This document shows, piece by piece, positions 9,449 to 61,403 of a stretch of DNA of 64,000 nucleotides. Position 1 is the first letter of the stretch; every line of letters starts with the position of its first letter. This DNA comes from a virus. The translations under genes were made by a program, and so were the position numbers. The notes under the pieces were generated by a model. The model did no database searches and was not told the origin of the DNA. It saw only the letters and a list, made by a program, of their open reading frames with translations. The DNA lies in the IMG/VR virus record IMGVR_UViG_3300043172_001413. One strand, 5' to 3'.

Positions 9449-9522
9449 GCGCCCGTAAGCTCAGTTGGTAGAGCGGCGGCCTCTATTTCCGCTGGTCGGG
9501 GGTTCGATTCCCTCCGGGCGTT
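9449..9522 (+). tRNA. tRNA with anticodon CUA (amber-suppressor-like)
   Basis: GCGCCCG acceptor (G1-U72 wobble), D-arm GCTCAGTTGGTAGAGC, anticodon stem GCGGC/TCCGC, loop CTCTATT giving 34-36 = CTA, T-arm GGGGGTTCGATTCCCTC; followed by T-run. Confidence 0.55.
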
Positions 9523-9525
9523 CTT

Positions 9526-9704: not shown

Positions 9705-10751
9705 TTAAAGGAAAACTTTTTGAATATCATGTCTTTTATTCATGCAGTTTGACATGAAAACATTACAGTCATAATGATTTACTATCGCATTACGATAAAA
9801 CAGAGCGGTTTTTGCATCAATGGGTTTAAAACTGTGGCAATCAACGCCTACGTTCAATCCATTTTCTTTGACCATTTGGAGTTTATGGATATGGCCAAAT
9901 AAAAAGAAATCTATCCCTTCACCTTCTTCAGGTGCGTGGATTAAACGGAAAGCAATATTCTCTAACATAAGCAGAAAGTTATTTTTTATGATAATGACTC
10001 TGCTGTCCTCTTCAAGTTTTGTTATAGTAGGTTCTTTGTCGTAGTTGCCTGGTAAAATGTAAACACGTTCTCCTTTTAAATGTTGGAGCATTTTAGGATT
10101 ACCGAAATCTCCTAAATGGTACACTGTGTCTTTATCGGTTACAAGGGCATTCCACTGTTTTACCATCTCCCAGTCCATTTCTTCTACAGAAGAAAAGGGT
10201 CGTTTGGATAACTGTAATGTTCTTTCCTCTCCAAAATGCGTGTCGGAAGTGATAAAGACATTCATTACCGGGCCAGTTAGCTCTCTCAATTTAGTGAGAG
10301 CGTTATCGATACAGACAGAAAGAGTCTCAGCCCATGATATCTCTGACCTTTTACATCTTTCTTTAATGTACCTGAGATGTGGAGAATCAGAAGGGGCACC
10401 TACTGCTATTTTCCCGGAATTTAGCCACTCACCAAATTCAATATTAGTAGTAAAAGCTGGAAGAATCTCATTTCTTGGTATCCAGAACAGGATCACTTTA
10501 GAAATGCTCATAGCTTTTCTTTCCCAGTCTACCTGTCGGCTGTATGTCCAGTCTTCCGGTTGGCAATCGTCAGGGTATTCTGGGATGTAAACCACACCAT
10601 CGAATTCTTTCTCTTCTAACATTGTAAGAGCAGAGTGTCTCCATCCTTTAGGAACTATACCCCCTTTTGCAACTCTGTATGTAGGTCCTGCTAAGTAGAT
10701 AGAATCAGTACTTTCTTCCACCATTTTATCTAAAACATAACTTTTTAACAT
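9705..10751 (-). CDS. fusion protein: N-terminal nucleoside 2-deoxyribosyltransferase/DNPH1-like domain (tentative) + C-terminal calcineurin-like metallophosphoesterase
   Basis: N-terminal SIYLAGP motif; C-terminal MPP motifs SDTHFGE, GDFGN, GNYD, GHIH. Confidence 0.55.
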   Translation of the reverse strand: MLKSYVLDKMVEESTDSIYLAGPTYRVAKGGIVPKGWRHSALTMLEEKEFDGVVYIPEYPDDCQPEDWTYSRQVDWERKAMSISKVILFWIPRNEILPAFTTNIEFGEWLNSGKIAVGAPSDSPHLRYIKERCKRSEISWAETLSVCIDNALTKLRELTGPVMNVFITSDTHFGEERTLQLSKRPFSSVEEMDWEMVKQWNALVTDKDTVYHLGDFGNPKMLQHLKGERVYILPGNYDKEPTITKLEEDSRVIIIKNNFLLMLENIAFRLIHAPEEGEGIDFFLFGHIHKLQMVKENGLNVGVDCHSFKPIDAKTALFYRNAIVNHYDCNVFMSNCMNKRHDIQKVFL

Positions 10752-16614: not shown

Positions 16615-17795
16615 AGGGGTCTCTCACACAAAGGGCAAACTTTGATTTCTTCCTTTTCTTTTCTCTTCTGTTTCAGTTTTTCTGTGACTTCTCTTAATTC
16701 GTCACGAGTCGTTTTTGTTTCAACGGCTAATTCAGAGAATGCCTCCTCCAGAAACTCCGCCTCATGAAATTCTTTAAATGTCCTTTCCGCTTCTTCGACT
16801 GTTGCAGTTACCCCATTCATGTCAAAATTATCGAGGATCTCTTTTTGCTGTTTGATTCCCTTAATTAATTTTGTGGCTGTATCATCCCATTCACAGAGCT
16901 GGTCTACTTCCTTCACCAGAGAGTCAATTTTTGTTATTTTAGGGACTCTGAGTTGAGAGACACCCTTTAATTTCTCCACAATACCAGCTAATTCTCTGTG
17001 TTTTTTTTCTTTCTCTCTGAGCCACTGTACATCATTGATTGCTCTTTCAAACGGGCTACTGTCTGGGATTACTACTTGGGTGATTCTCCGGAGAACTGAT
17101 AAGGATTCTGTGAGCTCTTTTATTTTTTTTTCATAATCAACAAGAACAAGTATCTCAGAACTCAGATTTTCAGTCTCTTTCTCTTTTTCTACCAATATGG
17201 CAACTGTTTCTTTTATTTCTTCAAAATCAGCGAACGCTTTAAGACTCTCCTTTATAGCCTGCAGATCAGCTTCCCGGGTCTTTAACATAGATTTCTGAGA
17301 TTTTATTGTTTTTTGGCATAGGTCATCGGCCTTACTCAGGGTGTCGATGTTATACAGTTCTGCCAGTACCTCTGTTACCACAGAACCCGGTTTATCTACC
17401 AGGAAGAGTTCATCGAACTGAGAAGCTATAAAGGGAAAGACTTTTTTATCTCCTACTACCATCTTTCCAAAACCTGCACGAATTAATGGCGGCGGAACAT
17501 CCCTGTTCAGTTTTGAATAGACTTCCTTTTCTTTTCCGTTATAAATAGTGTAAGTAGCAGATGCCCCTTTCACCCATTCGACATCTATATCATCACGTTT
17601 TATTTTTACGGTGGTTTTCTTCTCTCCGTGCCGGATAAAACTTTTACCTGGTTGATTGGCTAGAGGGGCTTCGAGTGCCCTTATTATGGCACTCTTACCT
17701 ATATTGTTTTTACCGGTGATAACGGTGAAGCCGTCAATCTCAAAAGAGACATCCTTTATGCTTTGGTAATTCTTAATTGTAACTTTAGTTGTCAT
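16611..17795 (-). CDS. Rad50/SbcC-like ATPase, N-terminal lobe + ascending coiled coil ending at zinc hook
   Basis: Walker A GKNNIGKS, Q-loop, about 250-aa coiled coil, terminal CPLCERPL zinc-hook. Confidence 0.6.
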   Translation of the reverse strand: MTTKVTIKNYQSIKDVSFEIDGFTVITGKNNIGKSAIIRALEAPLANQPGKSFIRHGEKKTTVKIKRDDIDVEWVKGASATYTIYNGKEKEVYSKLNRDVPPPLIRAGFGKMVVGDKKVFPFIASQFDELFLVDKPGSVVTEVLAELYNIDTLSKADDLCQKTIKSQKSMLKTREADLQAIKESLKAFADFEEIKETVAILVEKEKETENLSSEILVLVDYEKKIKELTESLSVLRRITQVVIPDSSPFERAINDVQWLREKEKKHRELAGIVEKLKGVSQLRVPKITKIDSLVKEVDQLCEWDDTATKLIKGIKQQKEILDNFDMNGVTATVEEAERTFKEFHEAEFLEEAFSELAVETKTTRDELREVTEKLKQKRKEKEEIKVCPLCERPL

Positions 17796-19014
17796 CAGGG
17801 TCTTCTTTTTGTTTCTTTTTTTGGTTCTGCTTTGAGATGAAATCCTCGGCTACATTGGACATCAAATCATCCATTTCATCGGGTGGCTCATCTTCTACAT
17901 TCTGGTACTGTGCTTTTGTTGTTTCATCCTGTTTAAAAACGAGGGAACTCTGAAGTTTCTCAAATGCCCTTTCGTTGTCATTGAATGCTTGCCATAGTGC
18001 CTCTTTTCCCTGAGCTTTGATGATAACTTCATCATTCTGCTTGAAGGTGAAAAAAGCACCGCCTTTGGTAATGACTTTAGTGTTCATGGCAAGTTCAATA
18101 ATGGACCTGACATTATCAATACCTTCACCGAAACGGATGAAAATGGGAGCCTGAAAATAAGGGCGGTCGATCTTATTCTTAATAACGGTAGCTTTAATGG
18201 TTATGTTGACCGGTTCTTTCTCTGCTTTACCCGTGATCTTGCTCTGTACAGCTACTCTTTCAACAATGCCCAACTTTAGTTTTAATCTGACTGAGGAATA
18301 ATATTTTAAAGCTCTTCCGCCTGGTGACTCTTCCATAGGTCCGGACTGAAATTTTGATGTTTTTATAACATCTCTCATCTGGTTAATGTAGATCAGGCAG
18401 ACATTACTGGCTTTTAGGAATTTAGTGATATACTGCAGAAAAGTTGATTGAAGCTGTGCTTGCAGCCCAATGCGTCCAGCTTCATCTATAGCACCTTCCA
18501 GATATTCTTTTGGGACCATGGCTGGTACACTGTCCACAACGATGATATGTGGTTTTATATACAAAAAATCTCTGATTTGTCGTATACCCTGTTGGAAATG
18601 GACAGGTTCGGTCACGATAAGTTTACTTCTTCTCAAATCAAGACCCATCTTTTCCGCATATCCTTTATGGAATGTCTGCTCGAAATCAAGAAGGCATCCA
18701 AAGCCTCCCATTTCCTGTGCTTTTCTGATAGCACTAAGCGCTATTGTTGTTTTTCCGGAAGACTCGTCTCCTATGATTTCAACAATGGCTCCTCGGGGAA
18801 ACCCACCTGGCTTTCTGGTCATAGAGCCATCACCAATAATCTGATCGAGAACCCATGAACCGGTTGGGACAAAGTCTATAGTTTCTTCTTTTTGAAGATC
18901 GCGGATTGTTGCCAGATCTTCTTTATGTAATTTTTTAAAAAATTCTTCCTGCGTTAAAGGTTTCTTCTTTGCTTTAGAAAATTCTTCCTGCGTTGAAGGT
19001 TTCTTCTTTGCCAT
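17785..19014 (-). CDS. RecA/UvsX-like recombinase
   Basis: AIVEIIGDESSGKTTIAL parallels RecA IVEIYGPESSGKTTLTL; VVDSVPAM and YINQMR. Confidence 0.8.
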   Translation of the reverse strand: MAKKKPSTQEEFSKAKKKPLTQEEFFKKLHKEDLATIRDLQKEETIDFVPTGSWVLDQIIGDGSMTRKPGGFPRGAIVEIIGDESSGKTTIALSAIRKAQEMGGFGCLLDFEQTFHKGYAEKMGLDLRRSKLIVTEPVHFQQGIRQIRDFLYIKPHIIVVDSVPAMVPKEYLEGAIDEAGRIGLQAQLQSTFLQYITKFLKASNVCLIYINQMRDVIKTSKFQSGPMEESPGGRALKYYSSVRLKLKLGIVERVAVQSKITGKAEKEPVNITIKATVIKNKIDRPYFQAPIFIRFGEGIDNVRSIIELAMNTKVITKGGAFFTFKQNDEVIIKAQGKEALWQAFNDNERAFEKLQSSLVFKQDETTKAQYQNVEDEPPDEMDDLMSNVAEDFISKQNQKKKQKEDPDDN

Positions 19015-19714
19015 TTTTTATCTCCTCTGCAATTTTGTCCGAATTTCTTTCTCTTTTTGTATAGTCAAAGAACTGATCATTTTCACGATAGATTACCCCG
19101 GTGTATTCTGTCAGTCCTTTCTTATTTCCTCTTTTAAAAGTGTGCTTTCCACAAAACAATTTTCGCTCTCTTTCGGTTAATTCATCGTCTGTGTATTTTC
19201 TCATGAAATACCATTGATAGAATTTTAATCCGAGTTTTCCAATGAAATAAGCGTCAGCCACATGTTCAGAAAATCTTCTTCCCATGAGGTCTAACTCTTT
19301 CTTAGCCTGGTGTGTGATGTGGTGTTTGGTTACATCAGCCAGTTTTATTTCAGGAACAGCGAACCTTTTTAAGGTTTGGGGCTGTACATACAGAACAAAA
19401 ATTTTCTCGTCCAGAAATACCTCATGTATATGCTGGTTCAGAGCAAAGAGTAGTTCTGTATTAAAATCCTGTAAATACGGTGCTTCCATTGATATGAATT
19501 TTATATTTCTTGATCTCAGTAATGCGCGTACTTTTTCTCTTTGTGTTATCAGGCGTTCTACCAATAGACCGTCAGCCGGACTTGTTTTAAATACACCTCC
19601 TTCTAGGACTGCTTCTTTCCCTGTTTTATTTTCATCAAGGACTACCCATCCTAAATGGGTTAATGAAGGGTCGAATCCTGCTATCATAATTTTAGAACAT
19701 GTACCGGTCTCCAA
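18974..19714 (-). CDS. RuvC-like Holliday junction resolvase
   Basis: N-terminal IMIAGFDPSLTHLGWVV catalytic-Asp motif. Confidence 0.55.
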   Translation of the reverse strand: METGTCSKIMIAGFDPSLTHLGWVVLDENKTGKEAVLEGGVFKTSPADGLLVERLITQREKVRALLRSRNIKFISMEAPYLQDFNTELLFALNQHIHEVFLDEKIFVLYVQPQTLKRFAVPEIKLADVTKHHITHQAKKELDLMGRRFSEHVADAYFIGKLGLKFYQWYFMRKYTDDELTERERKLFCGKHTFKRGNKKGLTEYTGVIYRENDQFFDYTKRERNSDKIAEEIKNGKEETFNAGRIF

Positions 19715-19753
19715 AGAAACCGGTACATTAGTTTAAGAGATTATTAAGCCCAA

Positions 19754-24794: not shown

Positions 24795-25673
24795 TTATCT
24801 CTTTCGATGGTGTTTCGTGACGGATGAATCCAGTCCGGCGAAGATATCAAAAATCAGTGACGTGGTATCTACTTTAGTTGAATTGAAAATCTCATCAAAA
24901 TCGACACCACTGAGTTCATCTACTTTTCCTCTGAACATATATGACAACTGTTTATATTCTTTTGCGACCCTTGTTTTATATTCCTTTACGTATGTGAATG
25001 TCTCTGCATTGTCCCTTATGCTTTTTAAATAATCGGGTCCGCCCAGATAACATTTTAGACCATGATTTATGTTTTTCTTTTTTAGTATGTTCTCTGAGAG
25101 ATAAAAAGAACCAATAGCGATATTACAAAATTCGTTAAATAGGGTCTTCTTCCCCTTCCACCTGATATCTAATTTTTTTGCAATAGGTTCTCCGGTTGAT
25201 TCCTTTATCTGCATTAGACCCCGGCATCCGGCCTTTGAGGTCAAAGTAGGGTTAAAGTTCGTTTCTACCCGGATAAGAGCTACGTACACCTCCCACGGGA
25301 TTTGATAGTATATAGAATACTGATCAAAAATGATAGCGTAATGAAATGCTTCCCATTCAGATATCCCATATGCCAGTATAATTGTTTTTGCTATGCATTT
25401 TCTTCTTTCTCTTCGTAGGAAATAAGCTCTGTTCAACTCTTTTTCCTGTGCAAGTTCCTTTTTCAGTGCCTCTACTTCAACTCTTACTCCCAGACGATTG
25501 AATGTTGTTGTAAAAATGCTGATCAATGCTCCAATACAGATTATTAGAAAGAGAGTAATTATAACTCCTTTCCATCTACTTTTCTTTGGTTTCGGTTTTG
25601 TTTCCTCTGATGCACCTAAATCGTGGCTTTCCATATCACTCCTCGTTAAAAAGTGTGCCGCAATCTTCAACAA
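24795..25673 (-). CDS. membrane-anchored lytic transglycosylase (SLT domain)
   Basis: N-terminal TM; SKAGCRGLMQIKESTG core with catalytic Glu. Confidence 0.7.
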   Translation of the reverse strand: MLKIAAHFLTRSDMESHDLGASEETKPKPKKSRWKGVIITLFLIICIGALISIFTTTFNRLGVRVEVEALKKELAQEKELNRAYFLRRERRKCIAKTIILAYGISEWEAFHYAIIFDQYSIYYQIPWEVYVALIRVETNFNPTLTSKAGCRGLMQIKESTGEPIAKKLDIRWKGKKTLFNEFCNIAIGSFYLSENILKKKNINHGLKCYLGGPDYLKSIRDNAETFTYVKEYKTRVAKEYKQLSYMFRGKVDELSGVDFDEIFNSTKVDTTSLIFDIFAGLDSSVTKHHRKR

Positions 25674-27741
25674 GTCCCTGCTCGGGTTCTAACTTCTCTT
25701 CAGGCTCTTTTTCTGGGGTGTAATTTCCGGCTATTTTAAGAAATTCTTTTTCGGTGATTACTTTTACCCCATATTTTTCTGCTTTCACAGATTTATTCGA
25801 TCTTTTATCTTCATTGCACACGAGATAAGATAGACCTCTAACTATAGATTTTTTATTTGTACCACCCAGTTGAGTCACTATCGCCTGATAGTATGAGCGT
25901 GGTTTTTCCATAGTTCCAGTAAAACAGAAAGATATGCCCCCCAATACCCGGAGAAAAAACGGCACGATAAGTGTTTCCTCATTACCTTCAACTTGCAATG
26001 AAATTATTGTTAAGAGAAAATTAATTTCTTCTTTATTTTTTAATAATCCTGCCACAACTTTACTTGCAGATATATCTGAGAATCCCTTCAGTTTTACAAT
26101 ATCTTCTACGCTTCTTTCCATCAGATTATCGATGGTTTCAAAAGCCTGTAGGAGTTCTGCCGATGTGCTTTCTGAAATACTGGGAATACCCAGCGCACAC
26201 AGGAATTTCTCAGATGACATATTTTTAGTTTTAATTATATTATCAATAATTTTTTTTGCTGATTTCTCACCCCATCTTTCAATTGAGCTGATATGAGACG
26301 ATTTGAGACGATAAATATCCGCTATACTGTTTAGTGTACCCATGTCATACAATTCTTGAGCCAAGCTCTGACCGAAAGTGTCTATTTCAGTAACTTTAAT
26401 CCAGTTTAAAATCCTGAAGAATATTTTCCGGGAACAGTCATCATTTAAGCATCGGAGAGTAGTGCCGTCATTCTCAAGTTTCAAACCACAGCTGGGACAT
26501 TCCGTTGGGATCTTTATAGGATTACCTTCATGTTTCAGGACGGCCTCGATTTTCGGAATGATATCACCCCTTTTAACTAACATAACAGTGTCACCACGAC
26601 CTATACCCAGTCTTTTTATTTCAGCAACATTATGTAGGGTAGCCTTTCTTATTATTGAACCTTCTATCTCAACTGGTTCAAGATTTGCCAGAGGGGTAAC
26701 AACCCCGGTACGGCCCACATCCCATATTTCTTTATGAAAAATAGTGGCAGATCCTGGAGGTTCGAATTTCCATGCCTTCTGTGCCTTCGGTTTATTCCTT
26801 GTCATACCCATAGCTTTCTGTATCTCTTGGGAGCAGACTTTTACTACCACACCATCAATATCATAAGACAGAGTTTTCCTGCTTCTTTCAATAGATTCAT
26901 AAGCTGTGATTATTTTCTCCGGATTCCCAATAAACTGAACGGGAGTATAAAATCCTAATTTCTTCAGGGTTTTAATTTTATCAGGCTCATCAATAGCTCT
27001 ATTTATATCATAAGTAACTATCTGGAGATATTTGGAAAATTTACCGTCATATCTCCTGCTTATACCTGCTGCAGCATTCCGTGGATTAGAATATTTTTTC
27101 TCTTTAGGAAGAACTTGATTTATCCTGTTAAAATCATTCTTACTTAATAATATTTCAGCTCTCACCGAGCCGGTAAAGAAAAAACCTGGGTATTCAGCAG
27201 GTTTCATAATATCAATCATGCCGGCATCACTCATATCTTTTAATGCCTCTCCTGTCACAGGCATAGCTTTTTTTCTGAAACCGCGCATAAAAGCTACATT
27301 CTGACTTATCTCCTCACCCTCGATACCATTACCCCGGGTAATCGCTTTCATAAATTCAGAATCTTTATAGTCAAGAGAAATACTTAAACCATCAAGTTTA
27401 AATTGCAGGCAAAATAAAGTATCTTTCTCGAACTTTGACACCCATTTCAGGAAATCTTCTCTGGTATGAACTTTATCTAGGCTACCCATGAAAATACCAT
27501 GACCCGCTTTTTTCCAGGCAGAAGAAGCAGGATGACCCACGGTATCAAAGAAAGGGTGGTCAGGATCGTGTTTTCTTACCATGTCTTCCAGAGAATCATA
27601 TTCTTCATCGGTCATTATAGCATGACCAGTGCCATAATAAGCTTTTCGAGCTTCGACAAGACGTTCTACGGCAGATTCTATGTTATACACCACCTGGTCC
27701 ATTCCCTTCTTCAGTGTCATCCTCATCTTCAATGAGAGCAT
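25636..27741 (-). CDS. ligA: NAD-dependent DNA ligase
   Basis: KLDG adenylation motif, Zn-finger Cys cluster CPSCG...C, C-terminal BRCT-like region; 701 aa. Confidence 0.85.
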   Translation of the reverse strand: MLSLKMRMTLKKGMDQVVYNIESAVERLVEARKAYYGTGHAIMTDEEYDSLEDMVRKHDPDHPFFDTVGHPASSAWKKAGHGIFMGSLDKVHTREDFLKWVSKFEKDTLFCLQFKLDGLSISLDYKDSEFMKAITRGNGIEGEEISQNVAFMRGFRKKAMPVTGEALKDMSDAGMIDIMKPAEYPGFFFTGSVRAEILLSKNDFNRINQVLPKEKKYSNPRNAAAGISRRYDGKFSKYLQIVTYDINRAIDEPDKIKTLKKLGFYTPVQFIGNPEKIITAYESIERSRKTLSYDIDGVVVKVCSQEIQKAMGMTRNKPKAQKAWKFEPPGSATIFHKEIWDVGRTGVVTPLANLEPVEIEGSIIRKATLHNVAEIKRLGIGRGDTVMLVKRGDIIPKIEAVLKHEGNPIKIPTECPSCGLKLENDGTTLRCLNDDCSRKIFFRILNWIKVTEIDTFGQSLAQELYDMGTLNSIADIYRLKSSHISSIERWGEKSAKKIIDNIIKTKNMSSEKFLCALGIPSISESTSAELLQAFETIDNLMERSVEDIVKLKGFSDISASKVVAGLLKNKEEINFLLTIISLQVEGNEETLIVPFFLRVLGGISFCFTGTMEKPRSYYQAIVTQLGGTNKKSIVRGLSYLVCNEDKRSNKSVKAEKYGVKVITEKEFLKIAGNYTPEKEPEEKLEPEQGLVEDCGTLFNEE

Positions 27742-27985
27742 AATTAAACTGATTCATAGTCTCTTGAGTATGTTCCATCATTTTTAAAATATGTTCTTTC
27801 AGATTCTCTCTTAAAGGATCATCATCTTTAAGAGACATATAGGCATCAAGAGATTTAGAATAAATATCTGAGATAGCTAACATTTTACACCTGATAGCTT
27901 CTATTATAATGATAATAGGGTCATGTTTATTATATTCCTTGTCCATGAAGTCTTTAAAATCTTCGTCACCGAATTTCTTAGTCAT
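27683..27985 (-). CDS. acidic hypothetical protein
   Basis: 100-aa ORF. Confidence 0.4.
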   Translation of the reverse strand: MTKKFGDEDFKDFMDKEYNKHDPIIIIIEAIRCKMLAISDIYSKSLDAYMSLKDDDPLRENLKEHILKMMEHTQETMNQFNYALIEDEDDTEEGNGPGGV

Positions 27986-28158
27986 AGATTCTCTGCTCCG
28001 TGGTAATAAGTATCATATATATGGTAGTCTTTTTAGGCTCCTTTCTTAAACTATTTTTTAAAAAAAATTGTAACTCCAGTTTTTTGAACTCTATAGAGTA
28101 ACATTTTTATAAACATAATACATAGCAGGAAATTAGCAACTACAAAAGTAATTATTAT

Positions 28159-28178
28159 AATACACACTGTGTATTATT
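28159..28178. promoter_or_regulatory. palindromic operator-like site AATACACAC/TGTGTATT in divergent control region
   Basis: 8-bp arms, perfect; between minus and plus gene blocks. Confidence 0.35.
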
Positions 28179-28195
28179 TTTCCTTCTAAAGAAGT

Positions 28196-28242
28196 AATCA
28201 GTAAAAAGAAAAGATATAGAAAAAGGACTCGGTTCATATAAG
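28196..28242 (+). repeat. 47-bp direct repeat copy A
   Basis: Identical to 29145-29191. Confidence 0.9.
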
Positions 28243-28329
28243 GGAAAGTATGAAAATCAGAAAATGAATTTTTTTTAAAAAAAGTTTAAGACGAGGTACT
28301 GAAATCTGTACCATTAATTAATAAGGGGG

Positions 28330-28707
28330 ATGAACATGAACTGTATTCTTATTGGTAGCCCAGATAAAATATCTCTAAACAACTTTGTTAAGTTCCTGAA
28401 AAAAAGTCTTAATGAATATAGAATAGGTGTTATGCATTCTTTAATGTCTGCTAATTCTGTTCGATTATATATGGAAGACTTCTTGGAAAAGAACCCCAAG
28501 GCCATGTTTACCTATTACGCAAAACGAAAAGTGGGTATTGATCCGTTGACATGTTTTCCGACTTATGCTCAGGAAAGAGCAGATGTTGTTATCTGGTTTG
28601 ATCTTTATTCTACTGAACCAAAATTGGTGAAGGACCGGTTTAATGTAATGAAACAGACTATTAAGGATTGGAATAAATATATAGAGAGTATATCTGGTAA
28701 TATTTAA
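28330..28707 (+). CDS. hypothetical protein
   Basis: 125-aa ORF with AAGGGGG RBS and upstream GTACCATT motif. Confidence 0.5.
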   Translation: MNMNCILIGSPDKISLNNFVKFLKKSLNEYRIGVMHSLMSANSVRLYMEDFLEKNPKAMFTYYAKRKVGIDPLTCFPTYAQERADVVIWFDLYSTEPKLVKDRFNVMKQTIKDWNKYIESISGNI

Positions 28708-29144
28708 TGAAAGGAGGTATTACTTCTCGGAGAGAGAATACGTCCAGTACATAGAGAAAATTAGGGCTAAAATACAGGGGGCAGTATCTTGTCGGGACCA
28801 TAAAGGCTACGGCCGGTGACCGGAGGTACTGATCTGCTATGGGTAGAATCCCTATAAATTTCCTTCCATACAGGTTGTAGTGGACCAAATTCGTTGCCTG
28901 AAAGATATTACGAATTATGGGGGTGTTTATAACAGGTGCAGTAAAATTACTGTGGCTTGGGGGTTAAGCTGATACTGAGGATGCTGTGTACTGATTGTGG
29001 AGATTAAAGGATTTTCCCGCTCTATTCTACTATGAATAGTAGAAACGAAAACACTCGACAACGAAAAAAAGGCGTTGGAGTTCCCTTCGCCAACGAAGAG
29101 AAAGCGGCCAAAAGAGGCAGAAGGTTTGCTACTAACTACCAAAA
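28708..29144 (+). other. ORF-poor, relatively GC-rich structured segment; candidate non-coding RNA
   Basis: No ORF of 60 aa or more on plus strand; strong RBS AAAGGAGG without ATG; inverted repeats GGCCGGTGACCGG, TTCTACTAT-GA-ATAGTAGAA, CGTTGG...CCAACG. Confidence 0.25.
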
Positions 29145-29191
29145 AATCAGTAAAAAGAAAAGATATAGAAAAAGGACTCGGTTCATATAAG
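29145..29191 (+). repeat. 47-bp direct repeat copy B
   Basis: Identical to 28196-28242; 45 nt upstream of next gene start. Confidence 0.9.
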
Positions 29192-29229
29192 AACAATACT
29201 ACCAATTATTTACAAGAGAGATCCGGGAG

Positions 29230-29526
29230 GTGAAGATGGGTGTTACAATGTTAACGGCATTGATTATTCAATCAAGAGGTGATGATGTTAAATGTGAATA
29301 TACCGGGCCAGATAAGGACGGTATGTATACCGGTTGGATAAATCTTTATAGAGACGAAGAATATGATCACCCGTTACTGGATTCCGGACCAACGTTTAAG
29401 GAAAAGAAAATTGCTATTGAAACAATGGAGGGTATTGTAGTTCAGATAAGGGAAATTGATTTAAACCCTCCGCGGGAAGTTAAAGAAGCTATGAGTGTTG
29501 CACAACAAGTCAAGAATGCAATTTGA
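29230..29526 (+). CDS. hypothetical protein
   Basis: 98-aa ORF, GGGAGG RBS. Confidence 0.5.
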   Translation: MKMGVTMLTALIIQSRGDDVKCEYTGPDKDGMYTGWINLYRDEEYDHPLLDSGPTFKEKKIAIETMEGIVVQIREIDLNPPREVKEAMSVAQQVKNAI

Positions 29527-29860: not shown

Positions 29861-30823
29861 ATGTTATCTTCTGTAATTGGTCACGAACAGCTGAAGGAAA
29901 AATTGTCTATTCGTTTAAAAGAGCATCCGGCTGGGGTGTTTCTTTTTTGCGGTCCTGCCAGTATTGGTAAACGTACGACTGCTTTTGAAGCGGCAAAATA
30001 TATTCTGTGTGAAGATAAGTCTGAGGAAAAGTGTTCCTGTCAATCCTGTAAAAGATTCAAATCGGAACACCCTGATTTCTTATGTGTGGGCCGGCATGAG
30101 AAAATTAAAGTACACGATGTTGATTCAATAATTAATTTCAGTTCTACCGCTCCATTGATTTCGGATTATAAAGTTGTTGTTCTTGATAATGCTCATGAAA
30201 TAACTCCGGAAGCTGCGAACCGGTTATTGAAGAGACTGGAGGAACCTCCGCCGAAGTTTACTTTTATTTTAGTTACTTCAAACCCACAGTATCTTATTCC
30301 TACAGTATTATCCCGGTGCATAAAATATGAATTTGGTAATTTAAACCGTGATGAACTCACTACTATAATAAGGAAGAAACTGGGTTTTAGTTCTAAAAAG
30401 TCTGAGGTACTGGGGCTACTTGCTGTGGACTCTTCGTTGGATGTTTTTAAGAATGCTGGCCACTATTTGAAATACCGGAAAATGGCTGTTGAATTCCTGT
30501 CGGAAATAAAAAGTCGTTCTCTGATTGATTCTCTTGATTATGTGGATAAGATTGAGAAAGAGGATATACCGATTTTTATCGATATGATGATGCTGTTACT
30601 GACTGATTTTCTTCTCCTGAAAAATAATATTCCAGAGATAACCAACAAAGATATGGAGGAGGATCTAATAAAGATTGCGAAGCACATAAATGATAAAGCT
30701 CTTATAGGGGTTGTGGGAATGTTTAGTCAGATAAAGAGATATTTATATCTCAATATTAATTTGAACCTTTATTTGAAAAATGCAGTTATAAAGAGTTATC
30801 CTTATTTCATGGCGGACGTATGA
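29861..30823 (+). CDS. holB: DNA polymerase III delta-prime clamp-loader subunit
   Basis: FCGPASIGKRT, zinc module CSCQSCKRFKSEHPD, SRC motif. Confidence 0.65.
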   Translation: MLSSVIGHEQLKEKLSIRLKEHPAGVFLFCGPASIGKRTTAFEAAKYILCEDKSEEKCSCQSCKRFKSEHPDFLCVGRHEKIKVHDVDSIINFSSTAPLISDYKVVVLDNAHEITPEAANRLLKRLEEPPPKFTFILVTSNPQYLIPTVLSRCIKYEFGNLNRDELTTIIRKKLGFSSKKSEVLGLLAVDSSLDVFKNAGHYLKYRKMAVEFLSEIKSRSLIDSLDYVDKIEKEDIPIFIDMMMLLLTDFLLLKNNIPEITNKDMEEDLIKIAKHINDKALIGVVGMFSQIKRYLYLNINLNLYLKNAVIKSYPYFMADV

Positions 30824-31779
30824 ATTACCAGAATGCCGTATCTTCTTTGCGTTTTAAGAAGGAAACCAAATTTGCCCTTGTGGGTAATGAGCGCTATTTA
30901 AAAAAATCTTTTATTAAAATAGCTGAAAAAGTGCACTCTGACTGTACTCTGTATTCATTGTACCCGGATGACCAGGAAGAAGCTCTGGGTCTGCTGGAGT
31001 CTGAGGATCTATTCGGTGCAAAATTATTTGTATTTCATTCTTTTAATGAAATGAAAATGGAGGCCTTTGAGAGGGCTGTAAAAGAATATGGGGGTAACCT
31101 GATACTGGTAATAGGTGAGAAAGCCCGTCTTAAATCCAGGGCTATCACAGGCGTTCTCAGCAACGTTGCAGTAGTGGAGTGTAAAAAGCTTCGTGATTAT
31201 GGTATGGATTATCCTTTATGGATCAGGAATAATATCACAGAAGCAGGTTATACGGCACCGGATGAAATTGACCAGCAAATTTTTTTAAGGGTGGGACCAA
31301 ATATGTCAGCCCTATCACATGAGCTTGAAAAACTTTTTATTGTGAAATCAGAGGAAAAAGTTATTACGGTTGAGGATGTGGAGAAGATAGTGTCAAAAAC
31401 TGCGGTCAGCACAGCTTTTGAGATATTTGAAAGTCTTTTGAAGAGGAATGTTTGTAAGGCTCTGGAATGTTTTTATTCTTATTCTCGGAACCACGTTAAT
31501 TTTATTGAAATAGTTTCTTTTCTGGGATCTTACTTGGAGAAAATGTACCGGATGCTTCTTTTAAAGGAAAAGAGGTTTGCATCTGATGACATAGCGGATA
31601 TTATAAATATTCCGCGCTTTCTTGTGAAGACTAGGTACATGCCACGGGCTCAGGCTTTTGGGAAGAACAAAATAGCTGCGAAAATCGACAGTATCTGTAA
31701 TTTAAATGTGCACTTAAGATTATTCAAAGGGGATAAAAAAATTCTGATGGAGAGATTTATCCTTGGATTTGCTCAATAA
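30820..31779 (+). CDS. putative DNA polymerase III delta subunit
   Basis: Coupled to holB (ATGA overlap); N-terminal FALVGNERYL resembles delta lYG.e.yL. Confidence 0.4.
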   Translation: MNYQNAVSSLRFKKETKFALVGNERYLKKSFIKIAEKVHSDCTLYSLYPDDQEEALGLLESEDLFGAKLFVFHSFNEMKMEAFERAVKEYGGNLILVIGEKARLKSRAITGVLSNVAVVECKKLRDYGMDYPLWIRNNITEAGYTAPDEIDQQIFLRVGPNMSALSHELEKLFIVKSEEKVITVEDVEKIVSKTAVSTAFEIFESLLKRNVCKALECFYSYSRNHVNFIEIVSFLGSYLEKMYRMLLLKEKRFASDDIADIINIPRFLVKTRYMPRAQAFGKNKIAAKIDSICNLNVHLRLFKGDKKILMERFILGFAQ

Positions 31780-46146: not shown

Positions 46147-47562
46147 GTGCATTTTAAGAAATTTGTACTTTTTTTAGGGGCAATAAAAATTAAACTAGCA
46201 GAAAAATATCGACCGACGAAGTTTGAGGATGTCATCGGCCAGGATTCGGTTATGTGTGTCCTTAAAGCCTCCGTGAAACAGAATCGTTACGGTTCTGCTT
46301 ATCTCTTTTGTGGTCCCTTCGGGGACGGTAAAACTACACTAGCCCGTATCTTTGCTAAAGCTGTCCTCTGTGAATCCCCTATAGATGGTGAACCCTGTTG
46401 TGAGTGTGAGTCATGCCAGTTGTTTGAAGAAGAACGTCATTTCAGCTATAGAGAAATTGATGCTGCATCTTATGGCGGTAAGGATGATATGGTAAGTCTG
46501 CGTGATGATGCCTCTTCCTTAGCTGTTTCAAAAAAGAAAATTATTTGTATTGATGAAAGCCATGATATCTCTAAACAGGGACAGGATGCGCTTCTTAAGC
46601 AAACAGAGGAATGCCCTGATCATCTTATATATGAATTCTGTACAACAGACCCTGATAAGATGAGTAGCACTCTTCGTGACCGGTTCATGGAATTTCATGT
46701 GGTCAAAGTGAGTGCAGAACTCATAAGTCAACGATTAAGAACTATTTGTGAAAGAGAAGGAATTGTTTATCAAGAAGATGCCCTTCAGGTCATAGCAGAG
46801 AGATCAGAAGGGCATGTTCGTTCTGCCATAAATCTCGTAGAAGAAATAGCCTATCTGGGTGAAATATCTCTGGAGAATCTTAATAAAGTTTCCAAGGATT
46901 TTGAGGAACATTTATTTACAATAGTTTCAAACTTGGGAATCAGTCTGCCAAAAATTATAGAAACGTATCAATCTATTTCTTCCTTTTTATCTCCATTTGA
47001 ATTTTATAATTTATTGCTTTCATTATTGAGTGATGCAACAAAATTTTTATTTGGTTATGATGGTTTTTCTGAGAAGAGAAAAGATTTATTGTCAAAATTA
47101 AAAGAAATACATGGTTATAGTTTAGCTGAATTTTTAAATTACCTGATTACACGGGATAAATTCGTGGAAAAGGTAGGATTACAAAGTGACTTAATTATTT
47201 TGCACTATAAATTTTGTGCAAATAATTTTGCCCCTCGGATACAAAAAGAACCCTCTACAAACTCACAAATTCAAACTGTTTCAAAAAGTGATCCATCTAA
47301 TTCCCCTTTTTCCTATGCTGAGTTATCGAAATTAAGTATTAAAGATCGGAACCAGTTACTCCGAGAGGAGAGGAAAAAACATCAAAAAACCGGGGAAAAG
47401 GAAAAATCAGAAATAGTGCCCACAAAATGGCCCTTACCAAAAGAAGAGAGACCGGGGAATAATTTTGAAGAAAAGAGCATGTCGGCCAAGGAATTCTCTC
47501 AAAAATTGGTAGGAGGGCGTGTTGGTGAAGTCAGATCGGTGGTTGATTCTCGAACTGGATGA
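46147..47562 (+). CDS. dnaX: DNA polymerase III tau/gamma clamp-loader subunit (DnaX)
   Basis: YRPTKFEDVIGQ, GPFGDGKTT, CCECESC zinc module, EIDAAS; no ATG, start likely GTG 46147 or ATT 46189. Confidence 0.75.
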   Translation: MHFKKFVLFLGAIKIKLAEKYRPTKFEDVIGQDSVMCVLKASVKQNRYGSAYLFCGPFGDGKTTLARIFAKAVLCESPIDGEPCCECESCQLFEEERHFSYREIDAASYGGKDDMVSLRDDASSLAVSKKKIICIDESHDISKQGQDALLKQTEECPDHLIYEFCTTDPDKMSSTLRDRFMEFHVVKVSAELISQRLRTICEREGIVYQEDALQVIAERSEGHVRSAINLVEEIAYLGEISLENLNKVSKDFEEHLFTIVSNLGISLPKIIETYQSISSFLSPFEFYNLLLSLLSDATKFLFGYDGFSEKRKDLLSKLKEIHGYSLAEFLNYLITRDKFVEKVGLQSDLIILHYKFCANNFAPRIQKEPSTNSQIQTVSKSDPSNSPFSYAELSKLSIKDRNQLLREERKKHQKTGEKEKSEIVPTKWPLPKEERPGNNFEEKSMSAKEFSQKLVGGRVGEVRSVVDSRTG

Positions 47563-48031
47563 TGCATTCGAGGACGTTAGTTACCGAGATATCAAAGTTG
47601 CACTTGTTACAGTATTTGGTGAGGGAGTTGATTATTTCATTCCTATTCATCATGAGTCTATGGGATCATATACGAGTACCAGTGTTTTGATAGAAGGTTA
47701 TGTATTTATAAAAGATTGTTTGGAGGCTCGTCAGGGTATAAATAATTTACATGAAAGTAGAGTTTTTTCAGGGGCTCTTTTTTATTCAGGAAAATATCAG
47801 ACTGTTAATTCAGAAATAATAAAGAACCTCAAAAGGAAATTAAGAAATTCATTAAAGAAAAAAATGACAAACGGAACAAAAGTGTTGATTCTCGGAGGTA
47901 TTTTTAAAAATTTAACCGGTGAAGTAATAGGGATCGAAGATAACGGCAAAAAAATTATGGTGAAAATAAAAAGAATATCTAGGGAAATCATAGCTCCTAT
48001 TCCTTCTACGCTTTTGAAAGAAGTGAAATAG
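47519..48031 (+). CDS. NusG-like KOW-domain transcription factor
   Basis: KOW-like GTKVLILGGIFKNLTGEVIGI; GTG start with AGGAGGG RBS. Confidence 0.45.
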   Translation: MLVKSDRWLILELDDAFEDVSYRDIKVALVTVFGEGVDYFIPIHHESMGSYTSTSVLIEGYVFIKDCLEARQGINNLHESRVFSGALFYSGKYQTVNSEIIKNLKRKLRNSLKKKMTNGTKVLILGGIFKNLTGEVIGIEDNGKKIMVKIKRISREIIAPIPSTLLKEVK

Positions 48032-48949
48032 ATGGACCATATCATTATAGATGGCTTTGGCCTGGTTTTCCGCTCTCATTTTGCTTTCAGTTCTCTTCAG
48101 ACCAGTACTGGGCTCCTTTCGGGTTGCATCTTCGGTTTCTTGGTCAGTGCTCGGACTATAAAGAAAAGATTTCCTCATTGCCATGTGACGATTGCCTGGG
48201 ACAATGATCCTGTGCGCCGGAAGAAAGTGTTTGCCGGCTATAAAGCGAATCGTTCTCGTCTGGGTATTTATGAACAGATAGATGATTTAAAAGAAATTTT
48301 TTCAAACCTGAATGTATCACAGTCAGAATATATAGGAGAAGAGGCTGATGATGTTATAGCTTCTCTGATAAAATGCTATGACGGTCAGATTTACATATAT
48401 AGTTCAGATAAAGATATGTTTCAATTAGTGAAAGATGGCCGTGTAATTGTGATCCGGCCGAAGAGGGGAAGGTATGAAGAAAGATATTTTGATGAAGAAG
48501 CTGTGAAAGAAGCGTTCAAAGTCAGTTCTGAAAATTTTGTCTGCTTCCAGTGCTTCCGAGGAGATAAAGTTGATAGTGTTCCAGGCGTGCCGCGCCTTCC
48601 TTCCGACCTCATAGCCAGACTATCTGAGAAATATAAAACCCCGCAGAATATTTACGACAATCTTGACGAAGAAAAATTAACCGAATTCCAGCGTACCTCC
48701 TTACTGGAATGTAGGGATCAAGTATTGTTAAATGACCAGTTGGTGAAGTTACGTAACGATTTAGATCTGGAGATTATGACAGGAAAACCTAATGCTGAAG
48801 CTTTGGTTCCCCTTTTTGATAAATATGATATCAATTCTTTAAAATCCAATTCCTATGTAGAGGTTTTTATAGATGAGCCGTCTTTTACCGCAAGGAAAGC
48901 TCCTGCACTCGTTGTGAGTTACCCTTCTTTATTTGAGGGAGAAAATTAG
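48032..48949 (+). CDS. 5'-3' exonuclease / flap endonuclease
   Basis: N-terminal IIIDGFGLVFRSHFAF and acidic metal-binding clusters. Confidence 0.65.
   Translation: MDHIIIDGFGLVFRSHFAFSSLQTSTGLLSGCIFGFLVSARTIKKRFPHCHVTIAWDNDPVRRKKVFAGYKANRSRLGIYEQIDDLKEIFSNLNVSQSEYIGEEADDVIASLIKCYDGQIYIYSSDKDMFQLVKDGRVIVIRPKRGRYEERYFDEEAVKEAFKVSSENFVCFQCFRGDKVDSVPGVPRLPSDLIARLSEKYKTPQNIYDNLDEEKLTEFQRTSLLECRDQVLLNDQLVKLRNDLDLEIMTGKPNAEALVPLFDKYDINSLKSNSYVEVFIDEPSFTARKAPALVVSYPSLFEGEN

Positions 48950-57797: not shown

Positions 57798-61403
<3,606 letters not shown>

Follow-up and report, generated by a model that had tools for sequence, protein, structure and literature searches.

The 64,000-nucleotide (nt) stretch of viral DNA analyzed here (IMG/VR virus record IMGVR_UViG_3300043172_001413, referred to below as the window) is a replication and recombination region of a huge phage. 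Near position 28,000 its genes switch strand, and immediately to the right of the switch lie two identical 47-bp direct repeats (R1 and R2) that bracket a gene for a 123-amino-acid protein (p123) and a gene-less segment that specifies a structured RNA. The order is conserved (AT-rich divergent region, R1, the p123 gene, the abutting compact RNA of ~350–440 nt, R2, downstream genes), and comparison of related contigs shows it to be one conserved locus that heads the rightward cluster of replication genes in a clade of uncultured huge phages. The core features are as follows.

28196–28242 (+): R1, the 5′ copy of the 47-bp repeat, a direct repeat rich in A and purines; its 3′ end is the −10-like motif TATAAG, its identity has sharp edges, and it has orthologs in 13 other lineages.
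28336–28707 (+): the p123 gene, 123 amino acids; a probable compact P-loop/RecA-like alpha-beta fold, from an orphan family of stand-alone proteins of ~120–130 amino acids.
28708–29144 (+): structured non-coding RNA, recognized by the lack of an open reading frame (ORF), nucleotide conservation, and covarying helices, with no Rfam match.
29145–29191 (+): R2, the downstream copy, identical to R1; it begins 15 nt past the terminal hairpin of the RNA and lies 44 nt ahead of the next gene.

The 47-mer is AATCAGTAAAAAGAAAAGATATAGAAAAAGGACTCGGTTCATATAAG. Both copies are on the plus strand with no mismatch between them, just as a preliminary description of this DNA, made from the sequence alone, had recorded in placing identical 47-mers at 28196 and 29145. 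It also put them 45–90 nt before plus-strand gene starts; the measured distances are 93 nt from the end of R1 to the ATG at 28336 and 44 nt from the end of R2 to the ATG at 29236. No third copy occurs in the 64 kb at up to three mismatches (the chance expectation is 0), each half of the 47-mer searched separately returned only the R1 and R2 sites, and a whole-window repeat scan found it to be the sole dispersed exact repeat of at least 22 nt, all others being tandem. It had been conceded that the bracketing would be incidental if the 47-mer proved to be a common dispersed promoter; with only two copies in 64 kb, that objection fails. A dispersed promoter family was also sought using the whole repeat, its halves, the −10 region, and GAC-N8-TATAAR, and was rejected, as none of these had copies above chance in the window.

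Both repeat junctions are confirmed independently because separately assembled Logan contigs carry them: a 962-nt contig (L002) is the unit itself and another (L001) begins inside R2, the break point lying within the 47-mer. SPAdes and MEGAHIT k141 contigs of relatives have the same repeat-bracketed layout, and the exact 123- and 96-amino-acid products encoded after R1 and R2, respectively, are also found on a 512-kb contig and in a Logan assembly. The duplicated 47-mer might in principle be an artifact of assembly (a collapsed or expanded repeat, or a mixture of strains), and k=31 de Bruijn graphs do break at the repeat and yield unit-length contigs, but the repeat–unit–repeat arrangement (R-X-R) with a lineage-specific R occurs in SPAdes NODE, MEGAHIT k141, JGI, and NCBI assemblies from many samples. 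These are independent of one another, and we regard the artifact as excluded, with a scarcely conceivable margin for error. Breakage of the k=31 assembly inside the bracket repeat also accounts for the unit-length Logan contigs. In three of these (L002, L005, and L009; 962–973 nt), the ends overlap by 13–30 nt and so mimic circles of ~1 kb; brackets of this kind are a trap for anyone searching Logan data for small circular replicons. A free circle of ~950 nt was considered and rejected: the p123 homologs on contigs of ~910–975 nt are either k=31 breaks (Logan) or plain fragments that read into the flanks (ENA, NCBI).

Homologs of p123 (37–83% identity) were traced to loci in many sediment, lake, and subsurface metagenomes. 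Synteny held throughout, with the ligase gene and a gene of ~100 amino acids leftward, and p123, the gene-less stretch, and then small genes or the clamp-loader gene delta′ rightward. A direct repeat of 41–55 bp brackets p123 and the RNA in 14 lineages, at a spacing of 832–1118 bp; it is exact in 13 of the 14, and the other (L020) has one mismatch in 46 nt. Identity drops from 100% inside the repeat to 17–50% just outside it, on both sides and in every lineage. Compared between lineages, most pairs of orthologous repeats are 52–69% identical, which is not above the level of other non-coding DNA. Among close relatives, R is the best-conserved stretch (94–96% versus 74–82% for the gene), as a functional element would be, and the close lineages (the window, L003, and L014) have two to three differences in the repeat, every change being present in both copies. 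These alignments show the repeats to be evolving in concert: they are identical within a genome and differ between genomes, by 30–45% in most comparisons. Because independent selection cannot give both full identity and free divergence between lineages, either one copy overwrites the other or the duplication is regenerated. Such within-genome identity with between-genome divergence normally marks long terminal repeats, att sites, and CRISPR repeats, in which the duplication is regenerated or its identity is used.

Across lineages, p123 identity tracks that of the ligase and of delta′, and ligase identity among bracketed lineages falls to ~50% (43% on the partial contig L021). Since the same syntenic site is occupied in 14 lineages and p123 diverges in step with its flanks, the arrangement is ancient and, judged from these comparisons, the locus is inherited vertically and is not a recent insertion. 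The same evidence shows the earlier suggestion, that a cassette was acquired between duplicated copies, to be wrong insofar as a recent event is meant, and horizontal swapping of cassettes is ruled out because p123 divergence follows the flanking genes. The unit does not conform to an integrated mobile element of the att-repeat or cis-mobilizable element (CIME) type either, as the gene tables contain no recombinase gene within ±6 kb of it, its position is fixed, and it co-diverges with its flanks. The bracket is missing from two lineages whose flanks are complete: L027, which has no gene-less stretch either, and L032, which retains a divergent version of the RNA. L032 (817–957 and 1761–1897) further contains two 33-nt near-identical, palindrome-containing repeats 5′ of p123, and its stretch from the RNA to delta′ holds arrayed AATAATAC..AATG-type repeats. 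No match to the DNA or to the p123 protein was found in 50,697 GenBank phage records, where delta′ had distant matches only; GTDB genomes contained no related locus and IMG/VR a single one; and a search of IMG/VR with a 15-mer from the RNA returned 42 loci, all of them chance matches.

The gene-less segment spans 437 bp with a GC content of 0.44. The preliminary description had taken it as ~430 bp of DNA that is GC-richer than its surroundings, which is correct relative to the flanking control region but not to local coding DNA, to which it is about equal. It had also seen no plausible ORF there, and six-frame translation finds none, not even when TAG or TGA is treated as a sense codon; the TAG check mattered because the window carries a tRNA with a CUA anticodon. 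The strong Shine-Dalgarno (SD)-like site that had been remarked on as lacking a usable start is real: AAAGGAGG comes immediately after the p123 stop codon, and no start codon is placed where it could be used. At 28708–28716 in the window, and at the equivalent site in nearly all lineages, an SD-like GGAGG thus stands right after the p123 stop with no conserved ORF, and its role could be ribosome contact, definition of the RNA 5′ end, or internal pairing. Conservation at the nucleotide level comes in blocks that lie in different reading frames in different lineages. That the segment is a decayed or recoded (TAG-suppressed) protein gene might be argued from the tRNA(CUA) at 9449–9523 and from L003, in which a 112-codon ORF runs across it. 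However, that frame is conserved in no other lineage, no frame opens when TAG or TGA is read through, the window has no general TAG recoding, and the substitutions are compensatory in helices and lack three-periodicity. The closed frames, the isolated L003 ORF, and the compensatory changes together refute this reading, to which we attach hardly any credence.

Homologs of the RNA were sought using nhmmer profiles. There is one copy per locus, always on the plus strand and after p123, with one in the 64-kb window; the RNA follows the 123-amino-acid gene in more than 14 related huge-phage lineages, and its length varies from 310 to 580 nt. RNAalifold applied to 13 lineages gave seven helices. A long-range closing helix (28745–28754/28984–28993, continued by 28761–28764/28975–28978) encloses a 5′ domain of ~220 nt, and the 3′ domain contains hairpins at 28999–29003/29013–29017, 29069–29072/29084–29087, and 29104–29109/29123–29129. 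Over the 35 consensus pairs, 90.1% of the cells are paired, as against 39–44% when the partners are slid; 24 of the 35 pairs show double-sided changes (6–14 in slid controls), and the covariation score is 0.633 (0.13–0.18 when slid). None of 500 shuffles reached any of the observed pairing or covariation measures. Folds of subgroups agree on the architecture, and the strand is assigned as plus because G-U pairs are frequent. The inverted repeats of which the segment had been said to be full are weakly apparent in the single sequence (z −1.7), and it is covariation that shows the structure instead.

No known RNA family was recognized in three scans of Rfam 15, two of them at permissive E-values. 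The scan of the window at the gathering threshold returned only the tRNA at 9449; the scan of 27900–29400 at E ≤ 10 returned one chance snoRNA match, which lies inside the p123 gene; and 15 related loci at E ≤ 1 gave no match. ARAGORN found no tmRNA. The families so excluded include group I and II introns, RNase P, tmRNA, 6S, SRP, GOLLD, ROOL, HEARO, and the small ribozymes. The proposal of a candidate structured RNA, for which an Rfam scan had been recommended, is therefore strongly supported by nucleotide conservation and covarying helices in 13 lineages. On this comparative evidence, the segment is shown to be a genuine conserved structured non-coding RNA on the plus strand, and we are confident that it represents a large structured RNA family of huge phages that was previously undescribed. 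Its obligatory placement after a small gene with a probable P-loop-type fold, at a strand switch beside replication genes, is equally new and solid.

In p123, the Walker A position is degenerate, reading GSPDK[IV]S across homologs and GSPDKIS in the window, where the canonical form is GxxxxGK[ST]. A Walker-B-like (V/I)(V/I)WFD (canonical form hhhhD/E) is conserved and reads VVIWFD in the window copy. The nearest folds are the cores of replicative (DnaB-like) helicases and RecA. The family comprises 95 clusters among 1.84 billion representatives, and the domain almost always stands alone at ~120–130 amino acids. Sequence searches of Pfam, PHROGs, and PDB yielded no match, and a fold search of BFVD yielded no significant match. 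One protein of 891 amino acids (P0096) is matched by the p123 profile in six separate stretches, and Pfam gave only noise for it; it may be a tandem-domain relative or a low-complexity artifact, and the former would be of interest if p123 forms rings.

The core features are flanked by the following genes and signals, UTR denoting an untranslated region.

25636–27741 (−): gene for an NAD-dependent DNA ligase, which with the 100-amino-acid gene forms the left arm of the divergent region.
27683–27985 (−): first leftward gene, 100 amino acids, from the ORF list; no Pfam or PHROG match, with a homolog at the same place in relatives.
28000–28195 (no strand): AT-rich divergent control region, recognized from gene orientation; strand switch and cumulative GC-skew minimum.
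28133–28161 (+): sigma70-like promoter match TTAGCA-17-TATAAT (consensus scan, 10 of 12 matches), its −10 within the left arm of the inverted repeat.
28157–28177 (no strand): inverted repeat ATAATACACA c TGTGTATTAT with 10-bp arms, kept as a hairpin with a variable loop.
28295–28312 (+): 5′-UTR hairpin GGTAC-TGAAATCT-GTACC, just 5′ of the SD sequence of the 123-amino-acid gene.
29236–29526 (+): first gene after R2, an ORF of 96 amino acids with no family match.
29861–31779 (+): DNA polymerase III delta′ and delta (clamp-loader) genes, from Pfam tags on a Logan contig; they open the rightward cluster of replication and nucleotide-metabolism genes.

A strand switch at about 28.0–28.3 kb in extremely AT-rich DNA had been claimed from the start, and both parts of the claim hold. 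The GC content is 0.245 at 28000–28299, and the cumulative GC skew reaches its minimum at 28 kb, where the skew itself goes from −0.157 to +0.198. Between 28 and 61 kb, all ORFs of 150 amino acids or more are on the plus strand, and those to the left of 28 kb are on the minus strand except two (10126–10590 and 19284–19736), both nested in longer minus-strand ORFs. Leftward neighbors include, besides the NAD-ligase, an SLT transglycosylase, a RecD2-like helicase, an SbcC-like ATPase, and a phage RecA (17785–19011); rightward, polymerase III delta′ and delta are accompanied by ribonucleotide reductase (RNR) and a DnaX-like clamp loader. In several relatives, the delta′ gene directly follows R2. 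The AT-rich region is a candidate replication origin or early-promoter region.

The preliminary description was also right about a perfect palindrome in this region, but the 8-bp arms it gave are too short, the arms at 28157–28177 being 10 bp. In close relatives, the arms measure 8–10 bp, the loops 1–8 nt, and the inner bases covary (CACA/TGTG, CAG/CTG, and CAT/ATG); more distant relatives have an unrelated hairpin of 8–9 bp located 1–2 nt ahead of R1. A variable spacer (1–8 nt) and covariation of the inner bases of the arms are more easily reconciled with a hairpin that overlaps the −10 of the sigma70-like promoter than with a dimer operator, whose spacing would be fixed. Note that the number of sigma70-like consensus sites in the scan is not above chance; the AAAAAGTAAT..TATAATACA stretch around this particular match is kept in the close relatives L003, L014, L006, and L010. 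The ..TGTACCATTAATTAA.. context of the 5′-UTR hairpin is likewise kept in close relatives.

What the repeat does has to be read from the features that its otherwise divergent versions share. All are A-rich (37–70% A), with purines making up 63–82% of the sense strand; a T(A/G)TAA(T/G)-like motif (TATAAG, TGTAAT, GGTAAT, or GATAAT) closes most of them, and about half have (A/G)GAC-N7-8 before the −10-like motif. R1 is usually followed by G-rich sequence, and its distance to the start codon ranges from 66 to 277 nt across lineages. The longest of these leaders, in the IMG/VR relative L034, is due to a tandem array of the 7-nt (GAGTACT)n, in ~8 copies, that lies between R1 and the p123 gene (~2230–2290). 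R2 is followed by an A-rich stretch, in most lineages by a hairpin resembling a 5′-UTR stem-loop, and then by an SD sequence and a gene within 31–81 nt. A stem-loop precedes each copy, always outside the repeat: the inverted repeat or hairpin 5′ of R1, and the terminal hairpin of the RNA 5′ of R2. No terminator was predicted between R1 and the downstream genes.

The reading that we favor, with confidence and doubt about evenly balanced, is that in R one cis element serves at two sites, that it is probably a promoter segment, and that homologous recombination by the phage keeps its copies identical. R would be an element of ~47 bp that both positions require, and would most likely correspond to the upstream portion of a promoter (from about −50 to −1) extending to the −10 box, with transcription starting just beyond the repeat, so that the same signal would switch on the p123–RNA unit and the downstream replication genes together. 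The RNA would be made by read-through of the p123 message, there being neither a terminator nor a separate promoter between p123 and the RNA, and would then be stabilized or trimmed to the body closed by the long-range helix. Our best guess, guided by position alone, is that the RNA, alone or in a ribonucleoprotein (RNP) and possibly with p123 as its partner, may act when phage DNA replication begins. As to the identity of the copies, gene conversion and unequal crossing-over, including pop-out and pop-in of the unit like that documented by experiment for the promoter-early stem-loop (PeSL) cassettes of T4-type phages, would keep overwriting one copy with the other, and selection would preserve the unit together with two working copies; R would then drift between lineages but never between copies. 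Conversion and crossing-over are the simplest mechanism because the phage encodes a RecA, a RecD2-like helicase, and an SbcC-like ATPase, and because the copies are direct, ~1 kb apart, and of recombinable length, ~47 bp being about the minimal substrate for efficient homologous recombination. Concerted repeats around an RNA gene at a probable origin would make it testable how huge phages start replication and co-regulate their early genes.

Several observations weigh against this interpretation. The promoter activity of R and the ends of the RNA are predictions from sequence, and the single-sequence minimum-free-energy z scores of the RNA are modest and uninformative (−1.7 on the plus strand and −1.6 on the minus strand). 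No −35-like hexamer was recognized 16–18 bp from the −10-like motif of R. The R motif was not found upstream of other genes in the window, and R would therefore be a promoter class that has just two representatives in 64 kb. In L032 the RNA exists without a bracketing repeat, so the bracket is not indispensable to it. Lastly, pure conversion should erode the edges of the repeat, yet its length remains 41–55 bp even though the edge sequences change from one lineage to another. Stable length without conserved edges hints that identity or length is itself selected, or that the duplication is regenerated.

Selection for identity is the starting point of a different explanation, in which recombination between the ~47-bp repeats is programmed and frees a circle of ~0.95 kb containing one R, the gene, and the RNA. 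The circle would be amplified or transcribed round and round, or the unit expanded in tandem, raising the dosage of RNA and protein during infection, and reintegration would renew the duplication in each cycle; in a variant, the unit would be a CIME-like satellite, integrated but non-autonomous, that depends for its movement on a recombinase gene located elsewhere. Sharp, length-stable, exact repeats that persist through deep divergence are not readily explained by conversion plus drift, the unit contains no terminator, the closing helix of the RNA could define unit-length processing, the mini-circles of PeSL cassettes provide a precedent, and the phage has its own RecA. A circular or tandem junction would read ...ACTACCAAAA-R-GGAAAGTATG... 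(the RNA end, R, and the start of the p123 5′-UTR), but the contigs contain no such X-R-X junction and no tandem copy, and those assembled at longer k run straight into the flanking genes. No recombinase lies beside the unit, position is fixed and inheritance vertical, and L032 has the RNA without repeats; we consider programmed excision unlikely. A related and bolder idea, that the bracket is a new phage device at a replication origin whose identical sites let the recombination system of the phage pop out, amplify, or re-insert the unit in the course of infection, with the RNA and p123 forming an RNP that starts or controls replication, strikes us as similarly doubtful; if it were true, identity renewed in each cycle would explain why the repeats remain exact through deep divergence.

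Replication also figures in a third possibility, that the locus is an origin module in which the RNA is the origin transcript or primer, the purine-rich R provides sites for stable RNA–DNA hybrids, for primer processing, or for an initiator bound at either side of the origin, and p123 is an origin factor. As a primer model this is argued from position only. The locus is exactly at the strand switch and cumulative GC-skew minimum, with ligase, RecA, and helicase genes to the left, clamp-loader and RNR genes to the right, and an extremely AT-rich region adjoining; in addition, R is purine-rich on the transcribed-sense strand in all lineages and the closest folds of p123 are replicative-helicase and RecA cores. 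However, GC skew is inseparable here from coding-strand bias, a globular RNA with a long-range closing helix is unlike known primer RNAs, R has neither mirror symmetry nor triplex potential, no complementarity or covariation links R to the RNA, p123 lacks a canonical Walker A, and iterons, normally ~20 bp long, occur in many copies that are less than perfectly identical. We rate the origin module as improbable as it stands. Two further ideas were rejected: a triplex or H-DNA, as R is not a mirror repeat in most lineages, and pairing of the RNA, either with R in the manner of a guide or antisense RNA or, through a conserved UGAUUU, with the AAAUCA after R2, for which same-lineage pairs scored no better than cross-lineage pairs (5.08 versus 4.82). 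Finally, R might act in RNA. Transcription would start at the sigma70-like promoter 5′ of R1, and R would be a shared 5′-leader or intercistronic element read by one trans factor, whether a site for processing, for control of translation or stability, or for antitermination in the manner of nut and put. The sigma70-like promoter and hairpin 35–60 nt 5′ of R1 would indeed place R1 in the transcript, both copies are 44–93 nt before start codons, no terminator separates the units, and lambda nutL/nutR and HK022 putL/putR are paired RNA signals at operon heads. Yet no structure or sequence block of R is conserved across lineages, R1 lies anywhere from 66 to 277 nt ahead of the start codon, and recognition by a factor does not require all ~47 positions to be identical, so that recombination would still be needed to explain identity. 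We give this idea less weight than excision or an origin module.

Elsewhere in the window, several features merit record. The tRNA with the CUA anticodon (9449–9523, plus strand) is an amber suppressor, called tRNA-Pyl by ARAGORN and matched by the Rfam tRNA model at 50.2 bits. TAG is not generally recoded, the long ORFs of the window ending in TAA 34 times, TGA 13 times, and TAG seven times; however, two plus-strand ORFs (47519–48031 and 48032–48949) are in one frame with only a TAG between them and might form a read-through fusion. An AT-rich intergenic block of tandem repeats at 1374–1648 contains the 11-nt TATTACAGGGT ~9 times and the 18-nt ACAGGATTTTTATAACAG four times, followed by a (TA)n palindrome; it is iteron-like and could be another replication or packaging signal. 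The RecA ORF (17785–19011), which overlaps the neighboring ORF at 18974–19714, has at its start a 39-nt tandem duplication, 95% identical (18934–19011, minus strand). A plus-strand gene at 57801–61403 encodes a protein of 1200 amino acids with BNR/YCF48-like beta-propeller repeats and a collagen-like Gly-X-Y tract (9-nt tandem repeats at 60819–60965) that is probably a fiber or surface protein. In some relatives, replication genes harbor selfish inserts (L006 2388–5339, L006 1–1543, and L010 5403–7360): the NAD-ligase is split in two by a LAGLIDADG ORF, and an intein or LAGLIDADG element occupies the RecD2-like helicase and ribonucleotide reductase. The ligase, helicase, and RNR genes of the window itself are uninterrupted.

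Among known systems, ColE1 RNA II, the R-loop origins oriF and oriG of T4, and the T7 primary origin with its tandem promoters 1.1A and 1.1B all involve origin transcripts or primers. The locus described here resembles them in having a structured or promoter-proximal transcript by an AT-rich region where replication genes and strand asymmetry diverge, and its two identical copies of R recall the tandem identical promoters of T7; unlike those origins, it has a globular RNA with a closing helix, and its repeats are ~1 kb apart around a protein gene. Origins of the ColE1 RNA II type are defined by a transcript that persists as a hybrid at the origin, by RNase H processing, and by an antisense regulator; the likeness here is one of context (skew minimum, AT-rich DNA, and replication genes). 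In lambda nutL/nutR, HK022 putL/putR, and P1 incC-repA-incA, the paired elements, which are alike within a genome and co-evolve with their reader, are similar but not identical and have conserved cores (boxA/boxB, stem-loops, or 19-bp iterons). Here, too, two copies of one element stand before and after, or at the heads of, successive units, but R is identical over ~47 bp and has no conserved core or structure across lineages.

The PeSL cassettes of T4-type phages are a further comparison. Recombination between flanking PeSL copies leads to deletions, insertions, and mini-circles of ~0.4–1.4 kb (Arbiol et al. 2010, PMC2839356). PeSLs are composites of a sigma70-type (−35/−10) promoter and a terminator that are present in many copies in hyperplastic regions, where they flank variable, dispensable ORFans that differ between very close relatives (PMC2839356; Comeau et al. 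2014, PMC4122927). The window shares with them short, near-identical direct repeats (promoter-bearing in PeSLs) on either side of a small gene unit, in a large phage proficient in recombination, and a stem-loop ahead of each copy of R. It differs in having only two copies in 64 kb, with an R that mostly ends in a −10-like motif but in which no −35 is recognizable, in hairpins that are external to the repeat, show no relationship to each other, and carry no U-tracts, and in a bracketed unit that is conserved at one syntenic site in 14 lineages. The contigs are neutral as to whether the copies of R recombine into mini-circles or deletions. The RNA itself is closest in kind to GOLLD and ROOL (RF01998 and RF03087), which are also intricate phage-borne RNAs of several hundred nt recognized only by covariation. 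It matches neither, is smaller at 310–580 nt, and differs in its setting at the 3′ end of a specific gene, at a strand switch and bracketed by repeats. It thus adds a new family to the short list of big phage RNAs of elusive function, and its context is unusually informative, as it is always fused to one small protein gene at a strand switch beside the replication genes of ~0.5-Mb phages.

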